NCBI GenBank assembly: GCA_964510885.1
Contig: CAZEDL010000001.1
Span: forward strand, 312,982 to 376,981
Origin: an uncultured Gammaproteobacteria bacterium
GTDB lineage: Bacteria; Patescibacteriota; Patescibacteriia; Magasanikbacterales; GWA2-37-8
Reading direction: 5' to 3'
Length of the DNA stretch: 64,000 bases
Shown: positions 5,140 through 23,892 of the stretch, piece after piece
Layout of the letters: every line of letters begins with the position of its first letter
Numbering within the stretch: position 1 is the stretch's first letter
Translations under genes and position numbers: made by a program
Notes under the pieces: generated by a model
Seen by the model: only the letters and a program-made list of their open reading frames with translations
Database searches by the model: none
What the model was told of the DNA's origin: nothing

Positions 5140-5169
5140 ACGATAACGCTTAAGTCTTTGACGGCTAGC

Positions 5170-6543: not shown

Positions 6544-6592
6544 ACAAAGGTTGTTAAGGCTTTTTGATATTTCACTCAGTACTCAATAGATA

Positions 6593-7057
6593 CTATGGTT
6601 TGTTCTGAGCCTCACCAGCTGATACAGTTCCGGCTGCCTGGGCAGTAGGCGTACCTCCATTATTACCAATGTTGATGGGAGAAACTTCGATCACTCGATT
6701 AGCGATTGGATCAAACAAAATTGCTTTACGGGCTGTAGCATACAGCAAAACTTTATCCCCAGTTTTAGCCTTGGCAAAAAATTGCTGACCTTTAAGCAAC
6801 GACGGATCAGAGACGGTCGCGAGCGTTGGCTGCTCACCTTCAGGAAGATCTAGAATTTTTTGCACCCTTGCAACAACATCGACTAGTTCACTCTGACCTA
6901 CTTTAGATGGATTGTTTTTAATTACAGTCAGCTGATTATAAAGATACGCGTTTCCTGCTAAACTAACCAATAACGCCAGTAGAGAAAGAATGCTAAAAAT
7001 CTTAGCGACAGAGTGGACTGGCGGAGTTTGATTTTTTGTTTCCGTGCTCATAGGCAT
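6593..7057 (-). CDS. Hypothetical membrane-anchored protein (single N-terminal TM)
   Basis: IFSILSLLALLVSLAGNAYLY TM helix, then a soluble domain. A PilN/PilO-like role is possible but not demonstrable from the sequence. Confidence 0.35.
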   Translation of the reverse strand: MPMSTETKNQTPPVHSVAKIFSILSLLALLVSLAGNAYLYNQLTVIKNNPSKVGQSELVDVVARVQKILDLPEGEQPTLATVSDPSLLKGQQFFAKAKTGDKVLLYATARKAILFDPIANRVIEVSPINIGNNGGTPTAQAAGTVSAGEAQNKP

Positions 7058-7150
7058 AAAATTATTATTGATAAATAAGAATTTTTATTATTATATCATA
7101 GGTTAAAGATATACCAGAAAATTTTTGCTCATGTGGATAAGTTTTGATAG

Positions 7151-10100
7151 CTACCCTCCTTCCGGATTAGTGCTTGTATCATATTCTTGAGGAGGCTCAG
7201 ATGCAGGTGTAAAAACTTCTTCTGAAGAAGTCGAGAGTTCATCAACTGGTGGCGTGACAGAAGGTGTAGAAATAGTACTGGTCGTATCTGTTGGCAACAC
7301 TTCACCTGAAGGGGATTCAACTATCTCCGAAGGAATGACGGTGGCCCGACGAGCATTTTTAACAGCCAAAGCTATCCAGCTAAAGGTTAGCTCAAATGGA
7401 GCAGGCTTACTGAGGTGTAGAGTAAAACCACGGGTAGTCTTTTTAATTATGATATACCTAATATCTTCAGTAAAAATTATCTCTTCGAGAGCCGCAGCCT
7501 CATCAGCGCTGAGAGTGGAAGTAGTTTCGAGCGACAAAGTCGCATTTACTACCGGTTGCTCGAGATACTCATGCTGGAACTCTACAGCAACATTCTTTTG
7601 ACCGGGGGGTACAACCACAAATCCTCCGCTATCGGCGTTAAAATAGGGCCGGCCTATAAAAAGAATTTCGCTGCCGACACTAATAGCGCCGCTAATTGAA
7701 CTGAGCATATCGACTTGTAATCCAGCACGCAATATACCCGGCTGATCAATAGACAGGCTGCTACTTGCCAAGTTAGCCAGGGTAAGATTTGATTGATTTT
7801 CAAGCGTCGTCATACGATTAAACAGGTAGTCGGTGGTTGAGGCAACCGCGCTAAGGGCCATGGTAGATGACGCTAATTGGATGCCTAAATCAGCAGTGGT
7901 TGAGGCTAACGCATCTACGGTCGAAGACACATAAGAGAGGCCTGGGGTAACAATCTCGTTGGCAACCAACCGAGAAGCAGCAATTGTCCCAGACACGGTC
8001 AAGGTACTCGCAATTCTCACTTGATCAGCAAAAAAGGCGCTGCCCTCAAAGGTAGTAGTAGCTAAAAAATCTATATCTCCAATGACACTCACCATGCCGT
8101 TTAATACCGTCGGTCCGTTAACCGTGAGACCACCAATTACTAGTGAGCTTGAAGGACTGATTGTGAACGAAGAGGAGCTCGCGACAGTGGAAGTGGTGAG
8201 AATTTCGGTACCACCTAACTCTGATTCGGTATCAAAAAAAGATAAAGCGCTTGAAGTGACAGACGTACTACTCGGAGATCCCGGCAGGGCTAGTCCTCGA
8301 ATAATCAGAATAGTGATACGAGCAGAAGAAGTAGCGAGTGGCTCGAGTGCCATACCAATAATACTTGCTGTTTTTCCACTCTCCAGGTCATAACGCATAG
8401 CATAGCCTGCTCTAGAGGCAGTAACTACATAGTCACCGGTACTAATTGGGCCATTTTCATCAGTAACTTTGGTATTAACGAGGCCAGACAACGCGAGCGC
8501 ACCGCGATTTTCACCACTGACACCAATTAAGAAACGGCCCGTATCAGAGATAACACCAGCTACATTAACTGCATAGGCACTGGTAGATTTTTTAAATTTA
8601 TTAGGATTCTCCGGATCAGAAATGAGCACGTCACCGGGCTCGCTCGTGTCACCCGGCGACAGATCTACATATTCGGCCAAATCACCAATCGTGCTGCCCG
8701 CGGCATTGGAGGTAATAGTTCCGGTGGAGCGAACATTTCCACCGGTGTCTACTGAAAGAACTTTGGAACCGGCGTTGCGCAAAGAAAATAAAATAGAGCT
8801 ACTTGCCGTGCTCAACGCACTATTGGTATCAAAAATAAATGCCCCGGCACCAGACCCGGACGCAAAGGAAGTAATAGTGGTGGAAGAATTCGACGCGGTA
8901 ATTTTAAGGCCACCAGCGCCAGATCCACCAGTTATAGCTAGCGTACCTGAGGCATTAATGGTGCCTACTACGGTGAGAGCCGAACCGAGAGTAGTAGTGC
9001 CAATTACCGACAGGCCACCTTCGGAACTAATACCTCCAACCCCAGCAAATAGACCACCTCGTAAAAAAAGACTGTTATCAAAAAAAGCATTTTGTAGTAC
9101 TTGTAAACCTCCGATTTCGGCAGTATGGGAAATCAAACCACCTGTTTCAATTCCGCCCACATCATAATATTGAAACTCACATCCGTGTGCTGAATTCTCA
9201 GAGAGAGCCCGGCAACTATCGACTGAACCCCCAACCCCAATAAAGAATCGACGGCCGGCCACGTACAGAGCGTTTACCGTCGTTCCCGAAACCCCTGATC
9301 CGGAATCTACACCCCCGACAAAAGTTAGCGCACTCGTCGAAACATCATAGACTTGAATTTCGCAATTTGCTGGAGTTGAAATCGAACAACTGGCGCCATT
9401 GCTAGCATTCTTCCCCACATACAAATAGCGCCCAGCAGACATGACTGCTTTAGTCGCGTCGGTTAAATCAAGACCATTTTTATAAGTGGGATTTGTCGGA
9501 TTAATCACGTCAAATAGTTGTAGTTCGCAGCCAGTACGGGTGGAAGATGAACAAGTACCAGTATTGGCATTATTAACCAGAAACACGTTCATTCCATTGA
9601 CCGTAATACCATTAGCCGTATTATCACCATTATCAACTCCTCCAATATATATTAGTGCCGTGGTGGAGGCGGTGATATCATAAATTTGTAGCTCACAACC
9701 AGTATTATCAGTAGAACTGCAGGTTCCAGAATTAGATGCTTTACCAATATAGGCCCGACGCCCCGATAGAGCAACTGCATCAAAATTGCTTCCACCGGCA
9801 TCATTGGCGCCGCCCATAAACCGAGGCGTAGAACTGGGGCCGGACAAATCATATAATTGAATTTCACATCCTGCTGGGTTAGCGAAAGTACAAGTGGCAG
9901 CACTTACCGCTTTGGCAATTACTACTCTGCCGCCTTCCATAGCCAGTCCTTTAATTTGAGTAGTGGCATCAATACCGCCGCTATAAACCGGGCTCAGAGG
10001 ATTAAACATATTATACATTTGCAGCTCGCAACCAGTAGCCGTAGTAGCTGAACAAAAACCACTTGCCGCATTAGTTCCGAATACTAAATAATCGCCAAAA

Positions 10101-12772
10101 CCAGTAATCGCATTAACAGCGCTTCCCACATCGATACCACCCAGATACGTCGGACTACTGGTGCTGACATCAAATATTTGTATTTCACAGCCGGTTGGAT
10201 CGCTAGCGGAACATGTTCCAGCACTAGTAGCTTTACCTAAAAAAGCATAACGACCATTGGCAAACACTGCATTAGCATTAATAGCTGAATCATCATATCC
10301 GCCTGAAAAAGTGGGGTTGCCGAGATTGTGGACAATATTTCCTCCTGAAACAATTAAATTAGACGACAGGGTAGTAGTCCCTGAGATCGATAACGCCCCC
10401 GCTATACTAGAGGAAGCTATACTGATGAAACCTGTCCCGAAGGTGGCCAACCCCCCAGTCTGCAGCGTTCCAGAAGCGCTTAGTGGGCCGGCGACCTGAA
10501 GTCCAGCCCCGATACTGCTACTAGCACTGATAATTAAGCCGCCCTGAAAAGTACTTAGTCCCGCAACTAAAAAAGTAGAAGAGACAGTGGTGGCACCCGA
10601 GATGCTTAGTGTGCCACCGATACTACTGCTAGCGTTGCTAATAAACCCCCCCGTTAGAGTAGATAGCTCATTTACCAAGAGCGTAGACGAGGCGTTCAAT
10701 GGGCCGGCAATCTGAAGACCGCCGCCAATTGAAGATGAAGCGCTGGAAATGAACCCGCTCGTTAGCGTCGTTAGGCCGCTTACTCCAAGGGTGCTATTTA
10801 ATGTTGCTGCTCCACCTACTAACAAGCTGGAGGAAGCATTTAAGGGCCCTGTAACCTGCAACCCCCCTCCAATGCTACTTGAAGCATTGCTAATGAATCC
10901 ATTTTCAAATGAGGTCAATCCGGTCAACGTACCACCGCTCAGTAACAGATAATTACTCGCGGTAATGGAGTCGACCACCATGGCGTCGGTGATACTATTA
11001 TCGGGTAAGGAAATAGAGTTATTAACTGTGAGCGTACCGACATTCTGAGTGGTAACAGAGGAAGAAGCAATGGTGGTGGTAGAAAAGGTCGTAGTAGCGG
11101 AAAAAGTATTTAAGCCGCTGAATGTTTGGTCGCTAGATAATCTGGCAAGTGTGGCCGCATCTGAGAGACTATCGGTGCTGAGGCCAGTAATAGTGGCACC
11201 GGTCAGAGTGAGCTGGCCGGTAACGGCTAGGTTGGTGGAGGTGGCGTTGGTGGATGTAGAGAACGAGGTGAACAAATTGGTAATGGTGGACGTGGAAGCA
11301 TTGACTAATACTCCCCCACTTAAAGTGGACAGTCCATTGGCCAAAAAGGTCGATGAGGCATTAAGCGCGCCAGCCACTTGTAATCCGCCTGCCACAGAAG
11401 AGGATGCTGAAGAAATAAAGCCACCGGTAGCAGTAGTGAGGCCACTGACGCCAAGGGTGCTGTTAAGCGTAGCAGCACCACCAACCAACAGGCTCGACGA
11501 GGCATTCAACGCGCCAGCCACCTGAAGACCAGCGCTAATGGAGGAGGAAGCAGTGGAGATAAAGCCACCTTGGAGCGCTGTCAAGCCGGTTAAGGTGCCG
11601 CCAGAGAGCAACAAGTAATTACTCGCGGTAATGGAGTCGACCACCATGGCGTCGGTGATAGAGTTGACCGGTAAGGAGAGTGAATTGTTTACGGTCAAGT
11701 TGGAAACGTTTTCAGTTGTAACGGTCGATGAGGCAATTGTAGTTGTTGTAAAAGTAGTGGTAGCGGAAAAAGTATTTAACCCGCTGAATGTTTGGTTGAC
11801 AGCTAGTTTCGCCAAGTTAGCCGCATCTGAGAGATTACTGCTAGATAGGCCAGTAATAGTGGCACCGGTCAGAGTGAGCTGGCCGGTAACGGCTAGGTTG
11901 GTGGAGGTGGCGTTGGTGGATGTGGCATTAGTGACAACGAGGTTAAATAGTGACGAAACGCCATCTACCGTCAAATTATTATACAAGCGAGCAGCTCCGC
12001 TCACCTGCAGAGTGGATGAACTAAATAACGCCCCCGTTTGATCGATACGAAGCAAGTTAAGCCCGGCTGCGGTTTGAAGTTGCAGCAAATCAACTGCTTG
12101 GCCGGTGGCACCGCGTACTGCTACCGGTACTGCCCCGGTAGAGGTAGCTTGGACAGAAAGAACAGAGCTCCCAAAAGGAGTGGTGGTGCCAATAGTTGAT
12201 TGGCCGGTCCCAGAAATACTACTAGCTGAAAGCGCGTAAGCAACGGCAGCAATTCGCTGGCGTGGGCTGAGAGTCTCGAAGGTCACTCCGCCACAAGAAT
12301 TACTGACTTGAGCCGCAACCTCTACATTAAGATAGACAGTATCATAATCTTGAAAATTAATATCAAGAATGTCACCTCCAGCACTCGTATCGCCGATCGG
12401 AGCAGTGAAAGTACCGTTTTTTACTAATACTGTCATTGTTGAGGGCGTGTTAGTCGGCCATAACTTGGTACCAGAACCAACTGAAGCTGTATTATACAAC
12501 GAGAAACGGAAACAATAATTAGCCCCAATATTTCCACCAAGCGCATTGGTACTACTGTCAAGCAAACGACCCTGATGATAGAGTATTCGAGGAACACCGG
12601 CGGCTCTAGTTATAGAGCCCGTAGAGAACAAACTCGACAAAAAAAATATACCCAATAGTCCGGCGCGAACCAACCGAGCCACATATTGGAGCGAATGATT
12701 GCCACCTCCCAAACGGATCATACGGCTGCTACGAGAAAAACACTTATTAACAAGCACGAAAAACAACCACAC
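7151..12772 (-). CDS. Giant (~1,870 aa) repeat-rich cell-surface protein (putative adhesin or pilus-associated). The likely true start is the internal Met near 12721.
   Basis: N-terminal signal/TM (LVRAGLLGIFFLSSLFSTGSITRAAG). Two ~250-aa tandem repeats (ATSTNATSTNLAVTGQLTLTGATITGLS...QTFSGLNTFSATTTF...). Nested ~60-aa sub-repeats (GFIS.ASSSI.GGLQV.G.LNASS.LLVGG). About 8 copies of a ~40-aa Cys-pair repeat (GTCS...TGCE[IL]Q.YD.S...P.Y.GG.D). S/T/P-rich C-terminal tail. Confidence 0.6.
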   Translation of the reverse strand: MWLFFVLVNKCFSRSSRMIRLGGGNHSLQYVARLVRAGLLGIFFLSSLFSTGSITRAAGVPRILYHQGRLLDSSTNALGGNIGANYCFRFSLYNTASVGSGTKLWPTNTPSTMTVLVKNGTFTAPIGDTSAGGDILDINFQDYDTVYLNVEVAAQVSNSCGGVTFETLSPRQRIAAVAYALSASSISGTGQSTIGTTTPFGSSVLSVQATSTGAVPVAVRGATGQAVDLLQLQTAAGLNLLRIDQTGALFSSSTLQVSGAARLYNNLTVDGVSSLFNLVVTNATSTNATSTNLAVTGQLTLTGATITGLSSSNLSDAANLAKLAVNQTFSGLNTFSATTTFTTTTIASSTVTTENVSNLTVNNSLSLPVNSITDAMVVDSITASNYLLLSGGTLTGLTALQGGFISTASSSISAGLQVAGALNASSSLLVGGAATLNSTLGVSGLTTATGGFISSASSSVAGGLQVAGALNASSTFLANGLSTLSGGVLVNASTSTITNLFTSFSTSTNATSTNLAVTGQLTLTGATITGLSTDSLSDAATLARLSSDQTFSGLNTFSATTTFSTTTIASSSVTTQNVGTLTVNNSISLPDNSITDAMVVDSITASNYLLLSGGTLTGLTSFENGFISNASSSIGGGLQVTGPLNASSSLLVGGAATLNSTLGVSGLTTLTSGFISSASSSIGGGLQIAGPLNASSTLLVNELSTLTGGFISNASSSIGGTLSISGATTVSSTFLVAGLSTFQGGLIISASSSIGAGLQVAGPLSASGTLQTGGLATFGTGFISIASSSIAGALSISGTTTLSSNLIVSGGNIVHNLGNPTFSGGYDDSAINANAVFANGRYAFLGKATSAGTCSASDPTGCEIQIFDVSTSSPTYLGGIDVGSAVNAITGFGDYLVFGTNAASGFCSATTATGCELQMYNMFNPLSPVYSGGIDATTQIKGLAMEGGRVVIAKAVSAATCTFANPAGCEIQLYDLSGPSSTPRFMGGANDAGGSNFDAVALSGRRAYIGKASNSGTCSSTDNTGCELQIYDITASTTALIYIGGVDNGDNTANGITVNGMNVFLVNNANTGTCSSSTRTGCELQLFDVINPTNPTYKNGLDLTDATKAVMSAGRYLYVGKNASNGASCSISTPANCEIQVYDVSTSALTFVGGVDSGSGVSGTTVNALYVAGRRFFIGVGGSVDSCRALSENSAHGCEFQYYDVGGIETGGLISHTAEIGGLQVLQNAFFDNSLFLRGGLFAGVGGISSEGGLSVIGTTTLGSALTVVGTINASGTLAITGGSGAGGLKITASNSSTTITSFASGSGAGAFIFDTNSALSTASSSILFSLRNAGSKVLSVDTGGNVRSTGTITSNAAGSTIGDLAEYVDLSPGDTSEPGDVLISDPENPNKFKKSTSAYAVNVAGVISDTGRFLIGVSGENRGALALSGLVNTKVTDENGPISTGDYVVTASRAGYAMRYDLESGKTASIIGMALEPLATSSARITILIIRGLALPGSPSSTSVTSSALSFFDTESELGGTEILTTSTVASSSSFTISPSSSLVIGGLTVNGPTVLNGMVSVIGDIDFLATTTFEGSAFFADQVRIASTLTVSGTIAASRLVANEIVTPGLSYVSSTVDALASTTADLGIQLASSTMALSAVASTTDYLFNRMTTLENQSNLTLANLASSSLSIDQPGILRAGLQVDMLSSISGAISVGSEILFIGRPYFNADSGGFVVVPPGQKNVAVEFQHEYLEQPVVNATLSLETTSTLSADEAAALEEIIFTEDIRYIIIKKTTRGFTLHLSKPAPFELTFSWIALAVKNARRATVIPSEIVESPSGEVLPTDTTSTISTPSVTPPVDELSTSSEEVFTPASEPPQEYDTSTNPEGG

Positions 12773-14141
12773 ACCCCAATATGTGCCCGTCTTTATCTTT
12801 AAGCGAGGTAATGTGATCAGTTATCGCGATTTTTTTTCCTTCTTTGGTTACTAAGACACGATAACTCACTGATTTTTTGGAGCGAATTTTATTCAGAGAT
12901 CTATTTTTAATAAAAGAAAGTGTGAGCAGACTCTCATATTTTTTACCGATTACTTCCGCTTCGGTAAATCCGGATACATTACTGGCGGCAGTATTGAAAC
13001 GAATAATGTTGGCTTGGTTATTAACGACTATAACACCATCCCCAATGCTCGAGAGAATGGCTTCATCCAAATCTTTCACTTCACTAATAGCGTGATACGA
13101 TTTGGTCAAAGCCTTAGCCATGGTATTAAACGAAGCACTCAGTTCACCTAACTCATCACGCGATGTCACCGGCACATGAACCTGCAGTTTGCCTTCGGAA
13201 AAGGCTTGTGTTGCAGCACGCAAGCTCTGAACTGGCCGAATAATACTCTGATAAAGCCAATAAGCGATTACCAATTCACTGATTACGATAAAAAAACTCA
13301 AAATAAATAAAGAAGCTAGGGCGTCATCAAAAGAATACGTGGTTTTGTCTAAGACTGTTTGTTCAAGAGCCGTAAGTAGCGTGGTAATAGCAGTTTCTTT
13401 TTCAATCAAACCATGCTCGCCACCAAGCGTGTTGGTAGCAGTAAGACCGAGATCGTATTCAATTTTAGCCACCCTACTAAAAAGGCCCTGATAACGCTCT
13501 AGGGCTTTCAAACTGTCCCCGTTATTTTTAAATCCCTGGCGTAAAATGGCTATGTGTCGATCAAATTCAGTTTGATCTAACGCGTGGTGTCGCAGACGGA
13601 AGAATTGCTCACGCTGCCGTGCTTGACGTAACGTGGCAGCGAGGTTAGCAGGGGTTGCCGCTTGTAAAGTGTTAAAAGCGCGATCAAGCTCGCCTTCAAG
13701 GCCAAAATCCCTAAAGCCGAGTTCACGATAGTCGCTAACGACTTGATAAAAGAGTACTCGATAGTCGCTCAGCAAGTCTGGTAACGCAGTTGAATTGTGA
13801 CCGCGCAGATCTAGTTTTTGGAGTTGTCCATTCAAGAGACTTAATCGACGAGAGAAATCTTGATACCCGCGCTCCCAATTATCAACATAGCGACTTTTTC
13901 CTTCGTTAAAAAAAAGAATATTTTTTTCATCTGTAACTCCCTGAGTGAAAAAAGCCTGCTCTTCGAGCCGCATTTGCAAAATTAAACTGCGTAATTCTTG
14001 GATGGTTCCGCGCGCAGCAACTTGATTGACTTTAATATCACGCAGTGTCAAAAAAACAAAGCTGGAAAAAATTAATAAAATTAGTATCGGCAGCCCAAAT
14101 GCCAGCAGTAATTTGGAACGCAGGCTAAAGGTTGAAAGCAT
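12747..14141 (-). CDS. Membrane signal-transduction sensor: CHASE3-like extracytoplasmic domain, TM, HAMP, PAS. No kinase domain visible.
   Basis: N-terminal TM, then an LRDIKVNQVAARGTIQEL helical sensor region. Second TM LFILSFFIVISELVIAYWLY. HAMP-like RPVQSLRAATQAFSEGKL...SRDELGELSASFNTMAKAL. C-terminal PAS (ILSSIGDGVIVVNNQANIIRFNTAASNVSGFTEAEVIGKKYESLL). Confidence 0.55.
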   Translation of the reverse strand: MLSTFSLRSKLLLAFGLPILILLIFSSFVFLTLRDIKVNQVAARGTIQELRSLILQMRLEEQAFFTQGVTDEKNILFFNEGKSRYVDNWERGYQDFSRRLSLLNGQLQKLDLRGHNSTALPDLLSDYRVLFYQVVSDYRELGFRDFGLEGELDRAFNTLQAATPANLAATLRQARQREQFFRLRHHALDQTEFDRHIAILRQGFKNNGDSLKALERYQGLFSRVAKIEYDLGLTATNTLGGEHGLIEKETAITTLLTALEQTVLDKTTYSFDDALASLFILSFFIVISELVIAYWLYQSIIRPVQSLRAATQAFSEGKLQVHVPVTSRDELGELSASFNTMAKALTKSYHAISEVKDLDEAILSSIGDGVIVVNNQANIIRFNTAASNVSGFTEAEVIGKKYESLLTLSFIKNRSLNKIRSKKSVSYRVLVTKEGKKIAITDHITSLKDKDGHILGCVVVFRAC

Positions 14142-14363: not shown

Positions 14364-15737
14364 ATGGCCCTCACCCTATATAACACTCTAACGCGCCAAA
14401 CAGAACTGTTTGCTGCTTTAAAAAAAGGCCACGTTGGGCTCTATACTTGTGGGCCGACAGTCTATAACTACGTACATATCGGGAATCTGCGCACCTATGT
14501 TTTTGAAGATATTCTGAAACGCGTTCTAACCCTCAACGGCTTCGACGTGAATCATGTGATGAATATCACCGATGTCGGCCACCTGACGAGCGACGGCGAT
14601 ACGGGCGAAGATAAAATGGAAAAAGGATCAGCGCGGGAGAATAAGTCGGCCTGGGATATTGCCGCCGAATATACGATTGCTTTTGAGCACGATATTGCGG
14701 AATTGAATATTTTGCCGCCGAGCGTGTGGTGCAAAGCGACGGATCATATTAAAGAGCAAATTGCCCTGATCAAAAAATTAGAGAAAAAAGAGTTTACCTA
14801 CCGCACCAAAGACGGCATCTATTTCGACACCTCAAAATTATCAGATTACGGCAAACTGGCTAATTTACAGAATCAGGAGCTACGCGCTGGCGTGCGAGTG
14901 GACGTGGGGGATAAAAAAAATAATACTGACTTTGCGCTGTGGAAGTTTTCGCCACCACTTGAGAAGCGGCAAATGGAATGGGATAGCCCGTGGGGAGTGG
15001 GCTTTCCGGGGTGGCATATTGAATGCTCGGCGATGGCCACCAAATATCTAGGGCAGCCGTTTGATATTCATTGCGGCGGGATTGACCATGTGCCGGTGCA
15101 CCACACCAATGAAATTGCCCAGAGTGAAGCGGCAGCCGGCAAGCCGCTGGCGAATTATTGGCTGCATGGGGAATTTCTTTTGATCAATAATGATAAAATG
15201 GCCAAGTCGGGGGAAAATTTTTTGACGATTTCAGTGCTGAAAGAAAAAGGCATTAAACCCCTTAGTTACCGTTATTTTTTGTTACAGAGTCATTATCGCC
15301 GTCAACTTAATTTTTCGTTTGAGGCACTGACAGCAGCTGAGCGCGGTTTGGAACACTTTTATAAAAGTGCCGCTGCGCTTCCAGAGGGAAAAGCGAGTGA
15401 CATATTTCGTAAAGAATTTTTGGAAAAAATTAATGATGATTTGGATATGCCGGGGGCGCTGGCCTTTGTTTGGGAGCAAATCAAGGCCAAGGCGATTACG
15501 CAGGCGGATATACTATGGGCGGACCAGGTATTTGGACTACAGATAAAAGAGTGGTTGGCCCATCATAAAATCGAGCAGAGTGCAGCCTTGCCAATAGAGG
15601 TGCGGGCACTGATTGACGAGCGTAATCAGGCCCGGGCCGATAAAAATTGGCAGCGGAGCGATGAATTACGGCAGGCTCTTGAAGCGATTGGGTATGTAGT
15701 GAAAGATACTAAGGACGGGACGAGTGTTAGTCGGTAA
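14364..15737 (+). CDS. cysS: Cysteinyl-tRNA synthetase
   Basis: HIGN-type class I motif (YTCGPTVYNYVHIGNLRTY), KMSKS variant KMAKSGENF, and the Zn-binding Cys/His pattern (CGGIDH). Confidence 0.9.
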   Translation: MALTLYNTLTRQTELFAALKKGHVGLYTCGPTVYNYVHIGNLRTYVFEDILKRVLTLNGFDVNHVMNITDVGHLTSDGDTGEDKMEKGSARENKSAWDIAAEYTIAFEHDIAELNILPPSVWCKATDHIKEQIALIKKLEKKEFTYRTKDGIYFDTSKLSDYGKLANLQNQELRAGVRVDVGDKKNNTDFALWKFSPPLEKRQMEWDSPWGVGFPGWHIECSAMATKYLGQPFDIHCGGIDHVPVHHTNEIAQSEAAAGKPLANYWLHGEFLLINNDKMAKSGENFLTISVLKEKGIKPLSYRYFLLQSHYRRQLNFSFEALTAAERGLEHFYKSAAALPEGKASDIFRKEFLEKINDDLDMPGALAFVWEQIKAKAITQADILWADQVFGLQIKEWLAHHKIEQSAALPIEVRALIDERNQARADKNWQRSDELRQALEAIGYVVKDTKDGTSVSR

Positions 15738-15894
15738 AAATGCCTTACTCAACTATATATTTTTGATATACTACCCTTGCTTTTTTTGACTGTTTATGCT
15801 AAAAAGCGTACGCCTTTGATTACAGCCGTGGGATCTGGCAACTAGCCAGATTGACTGGTAGTAAAATCATAGGTAAACCACAAGGAGTAGGTCC

Positions 15895-16095
15895 ATGAAA
15901 CGGAGAATTTTCCTTTTCAGCATGATGGCGGTCTTCGCTGCGAGCCTGAGGGAAGCCCAGGCTGAATCGAAGTGCGACAAGGAGTGCAAGGGGGGAGGGG
16001 GAAAAGAAAAGGGAGTCGACAAGGGGGGCGACAAGGCGACAGACCAGAATGCGGATAAGCATAAAGCCCCCGCGGGACAAACGCCTCCCAAGTAG
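15895..16095 (+). CDS. Small secreted Lys/Gly/Asp-rich low-complexity protein encoded in GC-rich islet 1
   Basis: Signal peptide MKRRIFLFSMMAVFAASLREAQA, then ESKCDKECKGGGGKEKGVDKGGDKATDQNADKHK.... Good SD (AAGGAG) 8 nt upstream. GC-rich third positions contrast with the neighbours. Confidence 0.4.
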   Translation: MKRRIFLFSMMAVFAASLREAQAESKCDKECKGGGGKEKGVDKGGDKATDQNADKHKAPAGQTPPK

Positions 16096-16157
16096 CGGCG
16101 CCCCTAGTCTGAGCCAGACTGGCTGACCCAGACCCCGCCGAAGGACAAACACTATCC

Positions 16158-16188
16158 TGGCACCAGTTCCGTGTAGGAACTGGTGCCA
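16158..16188. terminator. Strong GC-rich stem-loop (13-bp perfect stem, 5-nt loop) 60 nt downstream of the small secreted gene. Terminator-like, but with no U-tract.
   Basis: tggcaccagttcc-gtgta-ggaactggtgcca read directly. Confidence 0.4.
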
Positions 16189-16306
16189 AGAGAAATCGAT
16201 CTCGACAATGATGCCCTGTACCAGTCTATGCTTTTTAAAATCTGCTAATATTATAGGATAGGATGAAAGTTTTTTTCCAGCAGACCGGTTTAATTAGTCC
16301 TATTAA

Positions 16307-17233
16307 CTACATCCACCCTCTTCGTTTGAAAAATAGTACTGTGGCAATGCCACCCCAGAGCAAGATAGCCACGATAAGCCAAAAACCACCCGGAATATCC
16401 AAAAAGATATTACCCCGCGCATGAATGCCAAATAACGTCGCCGCCAAAGTAAGAGGAAACGTAATGACCGAAATAACAGTCAACATTTTCATGACTTCGG
16501 TGGTGCGCAGATTGATCAGTGATTCGTTGGTTTCGTGCAGCGCATTAATACTCTCCTTCTGGCTTTCAAGCATGTGCCAGATTTCATTGGCAAATTCTTT
16601 GAGCGAATTGATGTAGTTTTGATAATTATATAATTCGAGTTCGCGCCCGGCCGAGAGAATAATGCGATCAAGCACGGTACGATGACCCTGCATGGAGCGG
16701 CGGAAGGTGACGATATTGGTTTTGAGGCGGAGGACCTCTTCGGCCATCTGGGCCCCGGGAATACGCGCAAATAATTTGCGGTCGACAAGGGTAATATCTT
16801 CGTTTATATGGAGGAGAATCGGGAAAATAGCTTCGAACAGCCGGGTTAAGAGTTCAAACCATAAATGGACGGCGGTGCCCTGAAAAAATCCCTGAAGAGC
16901 GGCCGGATCTTTTTTGCATTCGGCAAACATCCGTTCGATAGTGAGGAGTTTATTGTCGTGAACAGTGACGAGCAGGTTGCGAGTGATAAAAAAATCCACT
17001 TCGGTGAAGCCGAGGCGCCGGGTTTCGCGATCAAACACCGGAAAATGAAGGATAATAAAATAATAATCGGGTCGTTTAACGATTTTGGGGCGCTGGAATG
17101 GGGGCAAGCATTCGGCAATATCGAGATCGGAGAATTTAAAGCGTTTTTGGATTTCGGCCAGATCCTTTTCGCCCTGGCGCGTGACATTCACCCAGGTCAG
17201 GCCATTGCGGTCTAATTGATGAATATTTTTCAT
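16307..17233 (-). CDS. CorA-family divalent-cation transporter-like protein. The likely start is the internal Met at 17233; the six-frame ORF runs on into the MITE.
   Basis: Soluble N-terminal domain plus two C-terminal TM helices with a GIHARGN loop where the canonical GMN sits (non-canonical). The N-terminal 42 codons of the six-frame ORF are MITE sequence. Confidence 0.5.
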   Translation of the reverse strand: MKNIHQLDRNGLTWVNVTRQGEKDLAEIQKRFKFSDLDIAECLPPFQRPKIVKRPDYYFIILHFPVFDRETRRLGFTEVDFFITRNLLVTVHDNKLLTIERMFAECKKDPAALQGFFQGTAVHLWFELLTRLFEAIFPILLHINEDITLVDRKLFARIPGAQMAEEVLRLKTNIVTFRRSMQGHRTVLDRIILSAGRELELYNYQNYINSLKEFANEIWHMLESQKESINALHETNESLINLRTTEVMKMLTVISVITFPLTLAATLFGIHARGNIFLDIPGGFWLIVAILLWGGIATVLFFKRRGWM

Positions 17234-17293
17234 AGGTCGATACCGGAAATGATGGAACACCTGAACGGTGTGAGTGAAACGCTTATTATGCTT

Positions 17294-17397
17294 TTCATTC
17301 CCGCCCCCGCTTACGCTGGGGGTAGACTCCGGCGGGAATCCAGTAATATTACTAGGCACTTATGCGACTGGATTCCCGTTTTCACGGGGATGACAAA
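17294..17397. repeat. Family-A MITE-like element (copy A2), a hybrid carrying a family-B-like core (CCCCGCTTACGCTGGGGGTAG)
   Basis: Termini tcattcccgcc...ggggatgaca, internal ggcgggaatccag / ctggattcccg inverted repeats. The core resembles B-family ccccgcttgggcggggtagggg. Confidence 0.6.
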
Positions 17398-17508
17398 TAA
17401 AAATTTACACCTATCATTCTGGAAACAATTATACCATACTTTTTTAGTCTAAAACAGCCAAACACACGCTTTCCTCTTTTTCCTTATATATGCTATACTA
17501 GCCATACT

Positions 17509-18039
17509 ATGGTCACCAACGAACTAAACGATACTCTTCCCTATAACGAGCGCCCACTCACTCCGGAAACAGAGGCTCCGCAAGATTCTCAGACAGCGGA
17601 ATTTGAACCAAGCATCGAGGCGCCTAAAGAACAAACCGGTGTTGACACTAAGCCGATACGACAGCAGCCCATCGACAGCAAAAAATCATTTGCGCTGCCG
17701 AGTTTGCGCCGGCCGAAAAAAGTTATTCCGCAGGTGCGCGATGAAGTGACACTCAAGATCGAGCATGTGCTCGAAGATGGGCTCAGCGATTCATTCCAGC
17801 GCCTGTCCCCCATTGCGCAACAGGAATTCAAGATCAAAGGCGAAGAAACAGCAGTGAAAATCCGTGAGCTGCTCACATCTACTCATGTCAAAGTGAAAAA
17901 AATTTTAGCGCTGATTCTGGATTGGCTGAAACTGCTCCCCGGGGTGAACCGATTTTTCCTGGAGCAAGAAGCCAAAATCAAAGCGGATCGGATTATTGAA
18001 ATCATCGAACAAAACCCCGACAAACGCATTAAGCTTTAG
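17509..18039 (+). CDS. Hypothetical protein (acidic N-terminus, helical C-terminus)
   Basis: 176-aa ORF with a -10-like TATACT upstream. No recognisable motif. Confidence 0.4.
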   Translation: MVTNELNDTLPYNERPLTPETEAPQDSQTAEFEPSIEAPKEQTGVDTKPIRQQPIDSKKSFALPSLRRPKKVIPQVRDEVTLKIEHVLEDGLSDSFQRLSPIAQQEFKIKGEETAVKIRELLTSTHVKVKKILALILDWLKLLPGVNRFFLEQEAKIKADRIIEIIEQNPDKRIKL

Positions 18040-18050
18040 CGGTTGTTTTT

Positions 18051-20612
18051 GTGGAATCCATTGTGTTATTTATCAACACGGTCGTTGCTGTCATACTGAG
18101 CAATCAGACCATCTTTTATGCCACCCTGGCCGGGCTTGGTTTTTTTGTGTTTGTGGCAGCGCTCTTTATTTTGCGAGCGGTGCTGCATGGGCGCAGTAAA
18201 ACCAGCCGGGCCTTCCACAAAACAATTCTACTGATCCGCGTGCCGAAAGAAAAAAAGAACGAGCGGCATGACAATGGTGGCGGAAATGAAGATACTATCA
18301 ACCAAACCCGCGAACATATTGCAGTGGCTGAAACACTCTTTTCGTCGATTGCCGGGCTTAAGCCAGACCATGGATTTATCAAATGGCTCACCGGGCGGAA
18401 CGAGCACATAGCCTTTGAAATCGTGGCCAAAGACAGCAAGATCTCATTCTATGTAGCGGCGCCAGACAAAATGCGCAATCTTTTGGAGCAACAAGTTCAT
18501 GCCCAGTATCCGCATGCCGAGATTTCGGTCGAGACCGATTATAATATTTTTCATCCGAGCAGCCATATTGTGGGCGGATATTTATGGTTCAAGCACAAAT
18601 CCCCCTTCCCCTTTAAAACCTATAAAAAAATGGACAGTGACCCGTTGGTTGCGATTTTGAACCCACTCAGCAAGATCCTTGATGACGAAGGAGCAGTGGT
18701 GCAATTTATTGTGCGGCCGGCTGGTTCGCATTGGCGGCGCGAAGGCGTGCACATGATTCGCGATATTCGCCAGGGCCAAAAATTTGAATATGTGGCGCAA
18801 CGCGGTAGCTTTATGCGCAGCGTGCATAAATGGGGAAAAATTATTGCGCCGAAGCATCATGACCCATCTAAGCAAAGCAATCATGGCGAAAAGTATGTAC
18901 TGACGCAGATGGAAGAAGAAATGGTAAAAAGCATGGAAGAAAAGCTGAGCCACGGCGGGCTTGAGATCACGATCCGGCTGATTAGTTCAGCGGGGAGCAA
19001 AGAAAAAGCACAGCTGAACCTCGAGAATATTATCAACTCGTTCAGCCAATATAATATTTATCGCTACGGCAATTCATTTGGGGCCGCTATCCCCCGCCGG
19101 CAGACGGAGCTGATCCGCGATTCAATCTATCGCTGTTTTCGCGAAGGTTACCACATGGTGATGAATACCGAAGAAATGGCCGGCCTGTGGCATTTGCCGA
19201 TTCCCCATACGGAGACACCCCATATTAATTGGCTCGGAGCCCGCAAAGCACCACCGCCGGTGAATATGCCGAAAGATGGCATTGTGCTCGGGCGAGCAGT
19301 GTACCGCGGCGAAGAGACAATTGTGAAAATGAAACGTTCCGACCGGCGCCGTCATTTGTACGTGGTCGGTAAATCGGGTGGTGGTAAATCGGTATTTATT
19401 GAAAATCTGGCCGTGCAGGATGTGCAGAATGGCGAAGGCGTGTGTGTAATCGATCCACACGGTGATTTTGTGGAATATGTATTACAACATATCCCCAAAG
19501 AACGCGCCGACGACGTGATTTACTTTAATCCGGCCGATACGGAGCGGCCAATTGGGTTGAATATTTTGGAGGTGAAGACCGAAGAGCAAAAAGACTTTGC
19601 TACCCAGGAAATGATTGCGATCTTCTATAAAATGGTGACTGACCCATCGATGATCGGGCCGATGTTTGAACACCAGATGCGCAATGTGATGTTAACCCTC
19701 ATGAGCGACCTTGAAACGCCGGGCACGATCGCCGAGGTGCCGCGCATGTTTACCGATGATACGTTTGTGGCCAAATGGAAAAAGAAATTGAAAGATCCGG
19801 TGGTGCGCGCTTTTTGGGATAAAGAAATGGCCAAGACATCTGATTTCCATAAATCGGAAATGCTCGGATATTTGATCTCTAAAGTGGGTCGCTTTGTAGA
19901 AAACGAAATGATCCGCAATATTATTGGACAATCGCGATCGGGCTTTAATTTCCGCGAAGTGATGGACGGCAAAAAGATTTTGCTCGTTAACCTCGCTAAG
20001 GGTTTGGTGGGTGAAATCAATGCCAACTTGCTTGGTATGATTATTGTAAGCAAGCTCCAAATGGCGGCGCTCGAACGCGCGGCCTTGCCCGAAGAAGAAC
20101 GGCATGACTTTTTCCTGTATATCGATGAGTTTCAGAACTTTATTACCGATTCGATCGCCACGATTTTGTCGGAAGCACGCAAGTATCGCCTGGAACTTAT
20201 TATTGCGCATCAATACTTAAATCAATTGGTGGATAATAAAGGCAAGAACACCGTGCGTGATGCCGTGCTTGGTAATGCCGGTACGATCGTGACGTTCCGT
20301 ATTGGCACGGAAGATGCGGATATTTTGGCCAAAGAATTTGCGCCGGTGTTTGGGGCGTATGATCTGATTAATGTGGAGCAGTTTACTGCCTATATCAAAT
20401 TATTGATCGACAATACAGCTGCCAAACCATTTAACATGCTGACGTATCCACCGAAGCATGGGAACAAAGAATTAGCGGCGGCGATCAAAGAATTATCACG
20501 CCTTAAATATGGCCGGCCGCGCGAAATTGTGACGGCGGAAATTCTGGAACGGTCGGCTTTGGCCTCGGTGGCGAAACTGGATGATATGGATTTGAGTGAG
20601 GCGACGTTGTAA
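18051..20612 (+). CDS. Membrane-anchored TraD/VirD4/TrwB-like P-loop ATPase (DUF87-type) with a ~420-aa N-terminal domain of unknown function
   Basis: N-terminal TM pair. Walker A YVVGKSGGGKSVF, Walker B-like FFLYIDEFQNF. A C-terminal helical region typical of type IV coupling or HerA-like ATPases. Confidence 0.5.
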   Translation: MESIVLFINTVVAVILSNQTIFYATLAGLGFFVFVAALFILRAVLHGRSKTSRAFHKTILLIRVPKEKKNERHDNGGGNEDTINQTREHIAVAETLFSSIAGLKPDHGFIKWLTGRNEHIAFEIVAKDSKISFYVAAPDKMRNLLEQQVHAQYPHAEISVETDYNIFHPSSHIVGGYLWFKHKSPFPFKTYKKMDSDPLVAILNPLSKILDDEGAVVQFIVRPAGSHWRREGVHMIRDIRQGQKFEYVAQRGSFMRSVHKWGKIIAPKHHDPSKQSNHGEKYVLTQMEEEMVKSMEEKLSHGGLEITIRLISSAGSKEKAQLNLENIINSFSQYNIYRYGNSFGAAIPRRQTELIRDSIYRCFREGYHMVMNTEEMAGLWHLPIPHTETPHINWLGARKAPPPVNMPKDGIVLGRAVYRGEETIVKMKRSDRRRHLYVVGKSGGGKSVFIENLAVQDVQNGEGVCVIDPHGDFVEYVLQHIPKERADDVIYFNPADTERPIGLNILEVKTEEQKDFATQEMIAIFYKMVTDPSMIGPMFEHQMRNVMLTLMSDLETPGTIAEVPRMFTDDTFVAKWKKKLKDPVVRAFWDKEMAKTSDFHKSEMLGYLISKVGRFVENEMIRNIIGQSRSGFNFREVMDGKKILLVNLAKGLVGEINANLLGMIIVSKLQMAALERAALPEEERHDFFLYIDEFQNFITDSIATILSEARKYRLELIIAHQYLNQLVDNKGKNTVRDAVLGNAGTIVTFRIGTEDADILAKEFAPVFGAYDLINVEQFTAYIKLLIDNTAAKPFNMLTYPPKHGNKELAAAIKELSRLKYGRPREIVTAEILERSALASVAKLDDMDLSEATL

Positions 20613-20721
20613 TCGAGTGTTACATTAAAAAACACCAATTCCTTAGGCTTTTTGCTCCACTTGAAAAATCCCTCCCGTTCTTTTATTCTTACTTAGTTGA
20701 ACTTGTTAGATAAGTCAGCCT

Positions 20722-22365
20722 ATGACCACTCTTTATCGAAAATACCGCCCGGGCGTGTTCGCCGATGTGATTGGCCAGGAACATATCCTTAAAACTCTGC
20801 AAAACGAAGTTATCCTCGGCCAGATTGCCCACAGCTACCTATTTTTTGGCCCACGCGGCACGGGTAAGACAACGATGGCTCGCCTGATTAGCAAAGCCCT
20901 TAACTGCACCGGTCGAAAAGACAAGAGTGCCGAACCCTGCAATGCTTGCGGAAGCTGCACCAGCCTGATTCAAAACCGCTCCCTCGATGTGATTGAAATT
21001 GACGCCGCTTCGCAGACTGGCGTCGATAACGTGCGCGAAAATATCATCGAAAATGCCGAGCTGCAGCCCACCACTAGTCGCTATAAAATCTTCATTATCG
21101 ATGAAGTGCACATGTTGTCGACCAGTGCGTTTAATGCGCTACTCAAGACACTCGAAGAGCCGCCAGCCCATACTATCTTTATTTTGGCAACGACTGAACT
21201 TCACAAACTTCCGGCCACCGTTATTTCGCGTTGCCAACGGTTTCACTTTCAAAAAATCCCGGCTGATTTGATGCGCGAGCGGCTTAAGAAAATTCTGAGC
21301 GAAGAAAAAGTAGCTGTAGAAGATGAAGTACTACGCCGGATTATCCGGCAAAGCGAAGGTTGTTTACGCGATGCCGAGAGCCTACTTGGTCAAATCTTGT
21401 CGCTCGGCGGCACCACTATTACGGTGGCTGACGCCGCTGCAGTGTTGCCGTTGTCGGATACTGGCCTACTCCTTGGCTATCTTGATCATATTATTAAAAA
21501 AGATGCACCCGGCGCCCTGACTGATATTACTAAGCTCCTCGAAACCGGTGGAAACTTAGACCGTTTTTTTGTTAATTTAATTGAGATGCTCCGGGCAATA
21601 CTGCTGATTCAGGCCGCCCCCGAGCAGCTCGAGTCATTGCACCTTGATTACAGCGGTGATGATCTTGCCCACCTTAAAGAACTCTCAGTGCTCGTAACTG
21701 AGGCTGAAGTAGTGACTGTCATCGAATTAGCGCTTAAACGTCGGCTGGAAATCCGGACCGCTCCCCTGCCCCAATTACCACTCGAACTCTTAACTATTGA
21801 ATGGACCTGCCGTGGGCAGATGGCAGCCAGGCCGACAACAACTCCTACTCAGGGCACCAAACAACCTATGGCTCCCGCACCTGCCAAGGCTGCACCTGCT
21901 CTGGCCCCAGTAAAAACGACTGCCCAGATTACCGAGTCCCCTATTTCACCTACAGCACCGACCCTAGAACCGGCTACCTTTACCGATTCCATAAAAACGG
22001 CCTTATCCTCTATCACCGGGCATAAGTGCCATACGAGTCTCGCGGATATTTCGGCGCGCTGGAATGAAGTAACCAGTCAATTAACTGCCTCTAACCCATC
22101 GATTACGTTTATTCTGAAGATGAGCACGCTCGTCGCTGCGACCGAAGAGGGTCTCAGTATCACGGTGCCGTTTGCCCTGCATCAGGAAAAATTAATGGAA
22201 GCCAAGAATCGCAAACTGATTGAGCAAGCACTGTATACGGTGTTTAATGACCGTATAATTTTGCATTGTAGCACGGTTCCAGCCGCTGAAAGCGCGCCAG
22301 GGCCGTCGGAGGCGGCCACAATCACGAATTTAGCGGCGGAATTTGGCGGCGAGGTGGTGGGCTAA
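20722..22365 (+). CDS. dnaX: DNA polymerase III subunit gamma/tau
   Basis: RYRPGVFADVIGQEH..., Walker A FFGPRGTGKTT, zinc module CTGRKDKSAEPCNACGSC, SRC motif ISRCQRF, DEVHML box. Confidence 0.9.
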   Translation: MTTLYRKYRPGVFADVIGQEHILKTLQNEVILGQIAHSYLFFGPRGTGKTTMARLISKALNCTGRKDKSAEPCNACGSCTSLIQNRSLDVIEIDAASQTGVDNVRENIIENAELQPTTSRYKIFIIDEVHMLSTSAFNALLKTLEEPPAHTIFILATTELHKLPATVISRCQRFHFQKIPADLMRERLKKILSEEKVAVEDEVLRRIIRQSEGCLRDAESLLGQILSLGGTTITVADAAAVLPLSDTGLLLGYLDHIIKKDAPGALTDITKLLETGGNLDRFFVNLIEMLRAILLIQAAPEQLESLHLDYSGDDLAHLKELSVLVTEAEVVTVIELALKRRLEIRTAPLPQLPLELLTIEWTCRGQMAARPTTTPTQGTKQPMAPAPAKAAPALAPVKTTAQITESPISPTAPTLEPATFTDSIKTALSSITGHKCHTSLADISARWNEVTSQLTASNPSITFILKMSTLVAATEEGLSITVPFALHQEKLMEAKNRKLIEQALYTVFNDRIILHCSTVPAAESAPGPSEAATITNLAAEFGGEVVG

Positions 22366-22368
22366 GGC

Positions 22369-22396
22369 TTGACTTTTTGGCTAGGAATGCTACAAT
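22369..22396 (+). promoter_or_regulatory. Sigma-70-type promoter for tRNA-Gln: TTGACT, 16-nt spacer, TACAAT
   Basis: Consensus-quality -35 and -10 hexamers read directly, about 45 nt upstream of the tRNA 5' end. Confidence 0.55.
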
Positions 22397-22443
22397 CTGG
22401 TCACTCAAAAAAAGCTCGTGAGCAGCAGCGGGCGACTATATTT

Positions 22444-22515
22444 TCGGAGATCGTCTAATGGTAGGACCGCAGACTCTGAATCTGCGTATCTAGGTTCGAA
22501 TCCTAGTCTCCGAGC
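22444..22515 (+). tRNA. tRNA-Gln (anticodon CTG); CCA not encoded
   Basis: Hand-folded cloverleaf: 7-bp acceptor tcggaga/tctccga, D-arm gtct..ggac, anticodon stem gcaga/tctgc with loop ctCTGaa, T-arm taggt TTCGAAT cctag. Confidence 0.8.
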
Positions 22516-22525
22516 AAAGCAGAAT

Positions 22526-22549
22526 AAACAGGATAAAGGTCCTGTTTTT
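22526..22549 (+). terminator. Rho-independent terminator after tRNA-Gln
   Basis: aacagga-taaagg-tcctgtt followed by TTTTTT. Confidence 0.6.
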
Positions 22550-22694
22550 TATTTTAGTTTTTGATATTTTATAAAATAAAAAACAGGCTCTCCCTTTGCT
22601 TCTATTTTTTAGAAACAACGGGAGATGAAGCCTGCTTTGTGCGACACCTCAAACGATACGGTGCCGCTGAAATGCACAAGTGTTGCGGGGTGCG

Positions 22695-22991
22695 CTAGAG
22701 CCCGTACCACCACGCGCGGAAATTGCCAATGTGACGCGAGAACCAGGTGGGCGGGAGAACCTCCCACCAACCATTCCCTACAATCTCGTTGCAGAGCTGT
22801 TCTGGCGTCCAGGTGAAATAATCGTCCGCATTCCGAGGGTTTCGTGCGCATATGTTCACGCCACTCCAGCTGGAGTAGAGGACCAACACGTCACCCTTTT
22901 TGAGTTTGAGTTGCGCAACCGGCCCCTCGCCCTGCGCCTTGAGCCGGCTGCCTGACACCAGATTGTTGTCATTCGAAGGAAAACTGCTCAT
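22695..22991 (-). CDS. Hypothetical 98-aa protein in GC-rich islet 2, directly downstream of tRNA-Gln
   Basis: ORF with SD AAGGAG (complement) just upstream and a TTGACAAA -35-like box about 150 nt upstream. Trp/Gly-rich C-terminus with no signal peptide. Strand choice is uncertain in GC-rich DNA. Confidence 0.35.
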   Translation of the reverse strand: MSSFPSNDNNLVSGSRLKAQGEGPVAQLKLKKGDVLVLYSSWSGVNICARNPRNADDYFTWTPEQLCNEIVGNGWWEVLPPTWFSRHIGNFRAWWYGL

Positions 22992-23391
22992 GGGGTCTCC
23001 TTAACCACTGTCCAACATGGACATGATCTTAGCCGCCTAAACGGCCATAATCATAGCTATGTTAAGCTTATAAAGCTAAATAGCTTCCCATAAAATACGC
23101 TTTTTGTCAATACTTAATGTATTTAATTTTAACTGATTCAACTTCTGCTTTCGTTGAGTTTTGTTTGCTTACATGCTAGCAATTCTCTCAGCTATTTTAA
23201 GACTACTTAAATGGTTAATGAGCCTATAAAATGAACACGCAAGGACAGTGACCCAAAACACCCCATCATACATGACGCTGCACACGCACTTTGACATTTT
23301 TTTGCAAGGGCAACCTGATATCAACCTTACTCTTTCCTGATTTAGCTAAGTGTACTATAGTAAGACAATCCTGCTTTTTACGTCATAAGAT

Positions 23392-23892
23392 ATGACAGAA
23401 GACGCCGAAAAAATGTTTCTCGAGTGGTATGACCAGTATGCCGACGCCCTCTATCGGCATGCTTTTTTTCGCCTGTTTTCCGCCCCTCGGGCCGAAGAAT
23501 TGGTGCAAGAGACGTTTATGAAGACCTGGGAGTACCTGAAAAAAGGCAAAACAATTGATCAGCCGCGTGCCTTTTTATACCGCTTGCTGACCAATTTGAT
23601 CATCGATGACACTCGAAAGAAGAAGACGCTTAGCCTCGAAGGGATGGGCACGGAAACCGAACCATTTGATCCGCCCGATAACCAGCATCTGAAAATGGAG
23701 CAGGCGGTGCTTGGCAGCCAATTGGTTGAAGCGATGGTTGATCTGACCGAAGAAGACCGAGCCATTATTACGCTCCGGTATATGAATGATCTTGAACCCA
23801 AAGAAATTGCCGACATCATCGGCAGTTCGGCTAATGTGGTGTCGGTGCGCATTCATCGGGCCTTAAAAAAATTAAAACACTTAGTTAGTTAA
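23392..23892 (+). CDS. ECF-type RNA polymerase sigma-70 family factor
   Basis: Region 2 (ETFMKTWEYL...YRLLTNLIIDDTRKKK) and region 4 HTH (LEPKEIADIIGSSANVVSVRIHRALKKLK). Confidence 0.8.
   Translation: MTEDAEKMFLEWYDQYADALYRHAFFRLFSAPRAEELVQETFMKTWEYLKKGKTIDQPRAFLYRLLTNLIIDDTRKKKTLSLEGMGTETEPFDPPDNQHLKMEQAVLGSQLVEAMVDLTEEDRAIITLRYMNDLEPKEIADIIGSSANVVSVRIHRALKKLKHLVS

Follow-up and report, generated by a model that had tools for sequence, protein, structure and literature searches.

Accessory and orphan genes are, in most bacteria, AT-richer than the genome that carries them. Genomic islets, or flexible-genome hot spots, are short segments of atypical composition that are lineage specific, occupy recurrently variable junctions and encode envelope or orphan proteins, and mobility genes are not needed for them. 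Other described systems have further hallmarks. tRNA-linked integrative islands lie 3' of a tRNA, measure 10 kb or more and carry an integrase and a repeat of the tRNA end, whereas integron and other repeat-flanked cassettes share a recombination site or repeat. Prophage morons are autonomous single-gene units of distinct GC content with their own terminator, which often encode lipoproteins or surface proteins in a prophage context. CPR bacteria, whose genomes are tiny, rely on other cells, and their variable surface proteins are a likely interface with hosts and phages.

We analyzed a stretch of 64,000 nt (the window), which its SecA assigns to Candidatus Magasanikbacteria (CPR/Patescibacteria), the best reference genome being 80% identical in SecA. 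The window harbors five short GC-rich islets, named A to E, which are a flexible-genome feature of a common kind and not a new system. Like described genomic islets, they are short, lineage specific and located at recurrently variable junctions, and they encode envelope or orphan proteins. They are present or absent between kept flanks, and their atypical composition includes non-coding DNA, A and B being marginal at 4-fold sites. Unlike described islets, however, they are GC-richer than the recipient, they have no detectable donor, and at least one of them is old yet GC-rich. Indeed, we identified no donor lineage, and the homologues, one orthologue of E and two relatives of D, were too few for a gene tree. 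As the evidence stands, these are clear, ordinary flexible-genome islets that are odd in two respects: their donor is missing and their high GC persists. A literature search turned up no account of such GC-rich islets in CPR genomes.

The likeness to the other systems is partial. Islet B lies 3' of a tRNA in a region that is variable among relatives, as tRNA-linked islands do, but it has neither an integrase nor a tRNA-end repeat and measures 0.37 kb, and the other four islets are located away from tRNAs. Unlike integron or repeat-flanked cassettes, the islets have no recombination site or repeat in common. They resemble morons in being autonomous units of one gene each, which differ in GC, have a terminator of their own and often encode lipoproteins or surface proteins, but no prophage context or phage homologue was found around or for them. 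Finally, D, E and their relatives share with bacterial lipoproteins a hydrophobic segment at the N terminus and, after it, a conserved Cys whose context resembles a lipobox (pattern [LVI][ASTVI][GAS]C with an invariant Cys, judged by eye). They differ in the Pro at position -2 of E and in the mature domains of D and E, which match no known fold or family.

Composition, products and assembly of the five islets

The GC content of the window is 46.8% (150-nt windows average 0.468 ± 0.071). An earlier interpretation made from the sequence alone (the sequence-only reading) had described the genome as AT-rich, which applies to the native intergenic DNA only (GC 0.34). Native genes have a GC3 of 0.468 ± 0.062 (37 genes of at least 200 aa), a GC1 of about 0.55 and a GC2 of about 0.38. 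At native 4-fold sites, the mean GC is 0.57 (range, 0.40 to 0.76). This last value varies among native genes, from 0.40-0.47 at 4210-14141, a low group (4-14 kb) that includes a 1873-aa protein (7151-12772), to 0.62-0.76 at 14364-23892. The islet ORFs were read in the frame where GC3 exceeds GC1 and GC2, and the features of the islets are as follows.

15880 to 16190, plus strand: islet A, CDS plus GC-rich 3' tail
15895 to 16095, plus strand: islet A CDS, 66 aa, GC 0.57, GC3 0.69
22444 to 22515, plus strand: tRNA-Gln(CTG), after dnaX, conserved across the phylum
22625 to 22991, minus strand: islet B, CDS plus GC-rich 3' tail of about 70 nt
22695 to 22991, minus strand: islet B CDS, 98 aa, GC 0.57, GC3 0.71
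55408 to 56686, plus strand: C+D block, a single indel (about 1.28 kb); the site is empty in the closest relative (L004)
55514 to 55813, plus strand: islet C CDS, 99 aa, GC 0.59, GC3 0.78
56068 to 56655, plus strand: islet D CDS, 195 aa, GC 0.66, GC3 0.86
60745 to 60883, minus strand: E 3' non-coding element, GC-rich, with an intrinsic terminator at 60745-60771
60760 to 61885, minus strand: E block, an insertion of about 1.1 kb relative to L004
60893 to 61648, minus strand: islet E CDS, 251 aa, GC 0.67, GC3 0.87
61689 to 61778, minus strand: E 5' leader, conserved, with a predicted hairpin of about 20 bp (61727-61778)

We compared each islet with equal-length windows cut out of native genes. 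The GC3 of B, C, D and E was above that of all native windows (2,834 in the case of B), and 0.36% of them match A in GC3 and 2.9% in overall GC. At 4-fold sites, GC reaches 0.77 in C, 0.85 in D and 0.88 in E, beyond the native range, but stays within this range in A (0.68) and B (0.74). We therefore distinguish three strong islets (C, D and E) from two modest ones (A and B). Additionally, B stays below 60% GC in 150-nt windows, and GC1 and GC2 are above native values in D (0.62 and 0.51) and E (0.64 and 0.49). All five islets proposed by the sequence-only reading were thus found to have raised GC, but A and B are weak at 4-fold sites.

High GC extends beyond the coding sequences. It amounts to 0.53-0.77 in the 3' non-coding tails, 60 to 130 nt past each islet stop codon, and to 0.43-0.63 in the 60 nt upstream of each islet start. 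This does not agree with the proposed switch of composition within a few nucleotides of the gene ends; the sequence quoted as an example of it was located at 55763-55798, within islet C. Since high GC runs into the 3' tails, it is a property of the DNA segment and not of codon choice alone. For the same reason, we rejected translational selection as the sole cause of the high GC3. Furthermore, the single ribosomal-protein gene found beside the relatives of D has a low GC3 (0.33-0.38).

Islet A encodes a predicted secreted peptide, in which a signal peptide ending in AQA is followed by a Lys/Gly/Asp-rich tail with a CxxxC motif. A Shine-Dalgarno sequence (AAGGAG) lies upstream of its CDS, and the GC-rich 3' tail (16096-16190) contains a 12-bp hairpin (16159-16188). 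Islet B, also preceded by AAGGAG, encodes a 98-aa orphan protein without a signal peptide. The product of C is predicted to have a membrane anchor at its N terminus; it also has a Cys cluster, and its tail is rich in Lys and Ala. Islet C has a terminator-like hairpin of its own at 55942-55971. A and C are not paralogues. D encodes a putative lipoprotein, whose LLGASC fits the lipobox pattern by eye and whose Cys aligns with ASC and VSC in its relatives P0004 and P0005. The 251-aa product of E is likewise a putative lipoprotein, with a conserved Cys21 and eight more conserved Cys residues (nine in all). Its lipobox reads LAPA-C, with the atypical Pro, and takes the canonical form AVLG-C in its orthologue, the Cys being invariant by eye. 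The products of A, C, D and E are thus predicted to be exported or membrane anchored, in agreement with the proposal that each islet encodes a secreted protein or lipoprotein, but that of B is not.

Short segments of foreign composition are the usual warning sign of an assembly chimera or contamination, and we found nothing else in favor of such an origin. Logan contigs from two sequencing runs (SRR16481186 and SRR16481187), which are independent assemblies, were 99.9-100% identical to the window across the islet boundaries. They cross A, D and E at both edges, C at its inner edge and B at one edge. Their matches cover 55544-57231 and 55734-56865 (L001 and L002; 100% identity) and 60203-61974 (L003), one contig (L169) covers cysS-A-corA, and another links B to the sigma-factor side. 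Moreover, a different sample (SRR29476928) holds a diverged, orthologous desaturase-E-secA arrangement. Because independent contigs agree over the boundaries, the islets are not chimeras, which the sequence-only reading had also thought improbable. The islets are real DNA of this genome, and the chance that an assembly artifact or contamination made them is close to negligible.

Insertion junctions among related loci

About 160 related loci were available as relatives, 80 of which came from a JGI metagenome scan with the VirD4-like protein encoded between A and B. These 80 loci have the order cysS-corA-p176-VirD4-like-dnaX-tRNA-Gln in common, and none of them encodes a homologue of an islet protein. 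About 80 Magasanikbacteria loci have the gene for the VirD4/TraG-like protein itself (18051-20612, plus strand; 853 aa), a type IV coupling ATPase, as part of their syntenic core, and in them it lies outside any mobile element.

The closest relative, L004 (SecA 80% and SecDF 82% identical), has the same order as the window, desaturase-secA-hyp305-secDF. Its intergenic gaps measure 170 and 240 bp, and it lacks homologues of C, D and E. Aligning the flanks to L004 6760-7020 mapped C and D to one indel, and the E block was found to sit between the desaturase stop codon and a terminator/promoter region common to L004. The islets are hence absent from syntenic relatives with the same flanking genes, L004 lacking both C+D and E. 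The comparison with sister genomes, to which the sequence-only reading had pointed, thus yielded empty sites for C+D and E in L004 as well as an orthologue of E in a sister species (see below). Such a presence/absence pattern could also be produced by differential loss. The 305-aa protein encoded between secA and islet D (56810-57727, minus strand) is of normal composition and lineage restricted; its single homologue, in L004, is 34% identical, and it has no family match.

All four insertion junctions are recurrent variable spots among the about 160 related loci. The cysS-corA junction, occupied by A, is empty (<300 bp) in 9 of 20 related loci and holds rare genes elsewhere, 5 of 23 being GC-rich. 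One such insert, in L091, encodes a 368-aa lipoprotein with a GC3 of 0.69 in a locus of 0.39 GC. The secA-secDF junction is empty in 14 of 61 loci; the other loci contain 100 genes there, with 61 classed as rare, 13 as GC-rich and 13 as AT-rich. The desaturase-secA junction is empty in four of five loci. At the fourth junction, a conserved gene of about 280 aa lies directly 3' of tRNA-Gln(CTG) in some relatives, and most others have one to three rare genes of varied composition between the two. The window thereby marks entry points for variable surface proteins in Magasanikbacteria, at a few recurrent intergenic junctions that include the 3' side of tRNA-Gln.

Islet B has dnaX, tRNA-Gln, a sigma-70 factor and a DUF5667 protein as neighbors. 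It lies on the strand opposite to the tRNA, with its start about 475 nt away and its stop about 180 nt 3' of the tRNA, and AT-rich palindromic terminators (22523-22590) are located beyond its 3' tail. No integrase or recombinase was found at its edges, and no att-like direct repeat of the tRNA 3' end within 22300-23500. The view of the 98-aa protein as lying at a classic tRNA island site is thus in agreement with a variable hot spot, but the gene is about 180 nt off and has neither integrase nor att site. A synteny break spans 22516-23390, and the sigma-70 and DUF5667 genes that follow it have no counterpart within 10 kb in the 80 related loci. The 3' side of tRNA-Gln(CTG) is a hot spot of variability throughout the phylum (window and relatives L088-L167).

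To place the islets in the context of the phylum, 2,390 ORFs from about 160 loci were classed by the number of other loci holding a homologue. The deviation in GC was above +0.08 in 0.3% and below -0.08 in 0.9% of the core genes; the corresponding values for rare genes were 17% and 10%. Whatever the GC bin of the recipient, the top rare genes reach about 0.57-0.67 in absolute GC. Their GC excess drops with rising recipient GC (r = -0.30, p = 0.001), its 90th percentile being +0.16 at a core GC of <0.39 and +0.07 at a core GC of at least 0.48. This larger excess in low-GC recipients is more readily explained by an external pool than by an internal process that scales with the genome. Export signals (N-terminal hydrophobic segments) were not enriched in the GC-rich rare genes, and the islets of relatives include ordinary families such as SPFH/Band 7 and class-V aminotransferase.

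Homologues of the islets and evolution of islets D and E

Among 5.8 billion clusters, B and D matched only themselves, and E had one homologue (61% identity), which is its sister orthologue. No donor homologue of B, D or E was found in these clusters or in 1.84 billion representatives. Similarly, nothing was found by tblastn of B, D and E against 50,697 phage records, by tblastn of the islet proteins against plasmids, or with the family profiles of D and E in IMG/VR. The five proteins had no match above noise in Pfam, NCBIfam and PHROGs, the marginal PHROG match being that of D (E = 0.042), and their predicted structures were of too poor quality to use. The high-GC donor or host suggested earlier is hence not reflected in any homologue from a high-GC organism, phage or plasmid.

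Using hmmsearch and phmmer over all ORFs of the about 160 loci, we found D and E to be unrelated to the GC-rich lipoproteins at the same junctions (L006, 200 aa; L043, 135 aa; L091, 368 aa). A blastn-short comparison of the islet flanks with the window and all loci revealed no shared repeat or attC-like site, and the flanks contain no integrase or phage genes. Plasmid matches to the islet genes of relatives were rejected as a clue to the donor, their identity being just 29-37%. Small membrane ORFs of L039 (19629-19829, plus strand) and L090 (12421-12630, minus strand) were rejected as homologues because their tblastn similarity was not significant. These two-helix ORFs of 66-69 aa have a similar layout and a GC3 of 0.91-0.93, and the surrounding loci have 39-41% GC.

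Islet D founds a family of three proteins. The two others (36% identity; E-values of 1.6e-6 and 1.7e-5 with HMMER in the 1.84 billion representatives) are encoded on low-GC contigs (45-47% GC), beside rmuC and rpsT. These two proteins, P0004 and P0005, are positional orthologues that are 49% identical, with flanks at 79-86%, and both genes are GC-elevated (GC3 of 0.57 and 0.62, compared to 0.33-0.38 in neighboring genes). On L085 (183-710 and 910-1872) and L086 (160-810 and 1126-1635), a D-family lipoprotein gene and an adjacent gene for a secreted protein or lipoprotein lie upstream of rmuC. Both genes are GC-elevated on each contig (GC3 of 0.56-0.63, compared to 0.33-0.38 in rmuC and rpsT), and the two D-family genes have diverged from each other much faster than the neighboring genes.

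The orthologue of E lies on a sister contig (L084) with alignable spacers, where amino acid identity is 82% for the desaturase, 61-62% for E and 84% for the SecA N terminus. This copy has a GC of 0.66 and a GC3 of 0.81. Its presence at the same site in a sister species indicates that the insertion of E predates the species split and is not recent, and the acquisitions thus differ in age. With a dN of 0.34 and a dN/dS of about 0.34, E evolves fast but under constraint, and identity at 4-fold sites (0.47) is near the 0.41 expected at saturation. The recent horizontal acquisition claimed by the sequence-only reading is therefore partly borne out: the insertions relative to relatives and the GC-rich non-coding tails agree with acquisition, but the age of E does not agree with a recent one.

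Despite this near saturation, 4-fold-site GC is 0.92 and 0.85 in the two orthologues of E. C-G exchanges account for 30 of 89 4-fold sites, that is, 64% of the differences, and G is the last base of each of the 11 conserved Lys/Glu/Gln codons in the two species. We compared models by likelihood, using a native GTR process fitted on 627 native 4-fold sites with bounded parameters. A stationary GC-rich model reached an lnL of -178.6, compared to -192.1 for decay toward native composition; with time fixed to the native estimate, the values were -181.3 and -193.8, respectively. The decay model predicts a tip GC of 0.82, and 0.89 was observed. Pyrimidine-ending 2-fold sites (CC 19, CT 13, TT 3) match amelioration from a GC-rich start. 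Overall, this mixed evidence from the substitution pattern of E hints, short of proof, that its GC is maintained rather than simply decaying.

The non-coding flanks of E are 81-88% identical to those of L084 at the nucleotide level (88% for the 3' element), and the E CDS is 66% identical. Their counterparts in L084 are located at 1320-1460 (3' element) and 420-510 (5' leader). The 3' element has several predicted stems, and we read it as non-coding because two 1-nt indels argue against a coding function. In an Rfam search of the window, the tRNA alone reached the gathering score, and nothing credible was found at 60500-62000 at an E-value of up to 5. From the comparison of these two sequences, the 5' leader and the 3' element may be cis-regulatory or small RNAs.

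Origin of the islets

Overall, we hypothesize that the islets are probably horizontally acquired accessory cassettes, which would derive from unsampled donors of higher GC (about 55-67%) and encode fast-evolving envelope proteins. Each cassette, of 0.3-1.3 kb, would comprise one or two short genes, their ribosome-binding site and, at the 3' end, a GC-rich tail with a hairpin, inserted in an intergenic junction between conserved housekeeping genes without dedicated mobility genes. They would likely have entered by DNA uptake followed by illegitimate or homology-facilitated recombination; no integrase, att site or shared repeat is present. Given the predicted signal peptide of A, the signal anchor of C and the putative lipoproteins D and E, the products are most likely variable cell-surface proteins, which might be involved, for instance, in contacts with host cells or phages.

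The islets might instead form a CPR-endemic, native class of fast-evolving envelope genes, whose GC would be kept high actively, through selection on mRNA or DNA or through biased repair or conversion, and would not be a fading foreign trace. The near-saturated yet GC-rich 4-fold sites of E, with their predominance of C-G exchanges, argue for such a class, as do its G-ending codons and the better fit of the stationary model (by 12.5-13.5 lnL units). So does the high GC3 kept by P0004 and P0005 beside low-GC3 neighbors at 49% identity. Additionally, the homologues are confined to low-GC contigs: the known relatives of D and E occur in low-GC CPR-like genomes and are themselves GC-elevated, which counts against import, as does the missing donor. 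However, the pyrimidine-ending 2-fold sites of E fit plain amelioration, whose predicted tip GC is close to the observed one, and the non-coding tails are GC-rich as well. The GC excess is not constant but bigger in lower-GC recipients, the GC-rich rare genes of the phylum are not enriched for export signals, rare genes also deviate toward AT, and the case is built on a single orthologue pair with few sites. We thus regard a native class as unlikely, and the deliberately atypical gene class that the sequence-only reading had offered as its alternative is less likely than import. Somewhat more doubtful still is that the islets belong to a CPR-endemic pool of surface-protein cassettes, the GC of which would be actively held high and some of which would have structured non-coding RNA flanks. 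If such a pool exists, GC-richness would be functional (mRNA stability, or escape from AT-directed silencing or nucleases) rather than a transfer scar. GC-richness that is maintained and not slowly ameliorated would represent an unusual bacterial case of gene-specific base composition.

As for the two weak islets, A and B could be an effect of composition or chance, that is, short ORFs of Gly/Ala/Lys-rich or otherwise unusual amino acid content. Their 4-fold-site GC lies within the native range, neighboring native genes reach 0.69-0.76, native windows match A in GC3 and overall GC at the low rates given above, and the product of A is a low-complexity peptide. However, no native window reaches the GC3 of B, both islets have GC-rich non-coding 3' tails, and their junctions are empty or variable in relatives, so that we find this explanation improbable. 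A slightly poorer prospect is that the islets are remnants of a phage or an integrative element, for instance morons or one end of an island linked to a tRNA. The position of B beside tRNA-Gln, where synteny breaks in a variable hot spot, would fit a remnant, as would the autonomy of each islet, with its own ribosome-binding site and terminator as in morons. Against this stand the flanks devoid of integrase and phage genes, the tRNA end without an att-like repeat, the lack of common repeats, and the searches of PHROGs, phages, plasmids and IMG/VR, which gave no significant match. Acquisition of accessory cassettes from unsampled donors hence remains our preferred reading.

Two further genes of the window were noted. 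In the product of the ORF at 42032-43036 (plus strand), a DUF559/restriction-endonuclease-like domain at the N terminus (residues 17-118) is fused to a formyltransferase (Formyl_trans_N, residues 145-324). The ORF at 46336-46629 (plus strand) encodes a 97-aa GIY-YIG nuclease. With 33% GC, it forms an islet of the opposite compositional sign and may represent a homing-endonuclease-type insertion.
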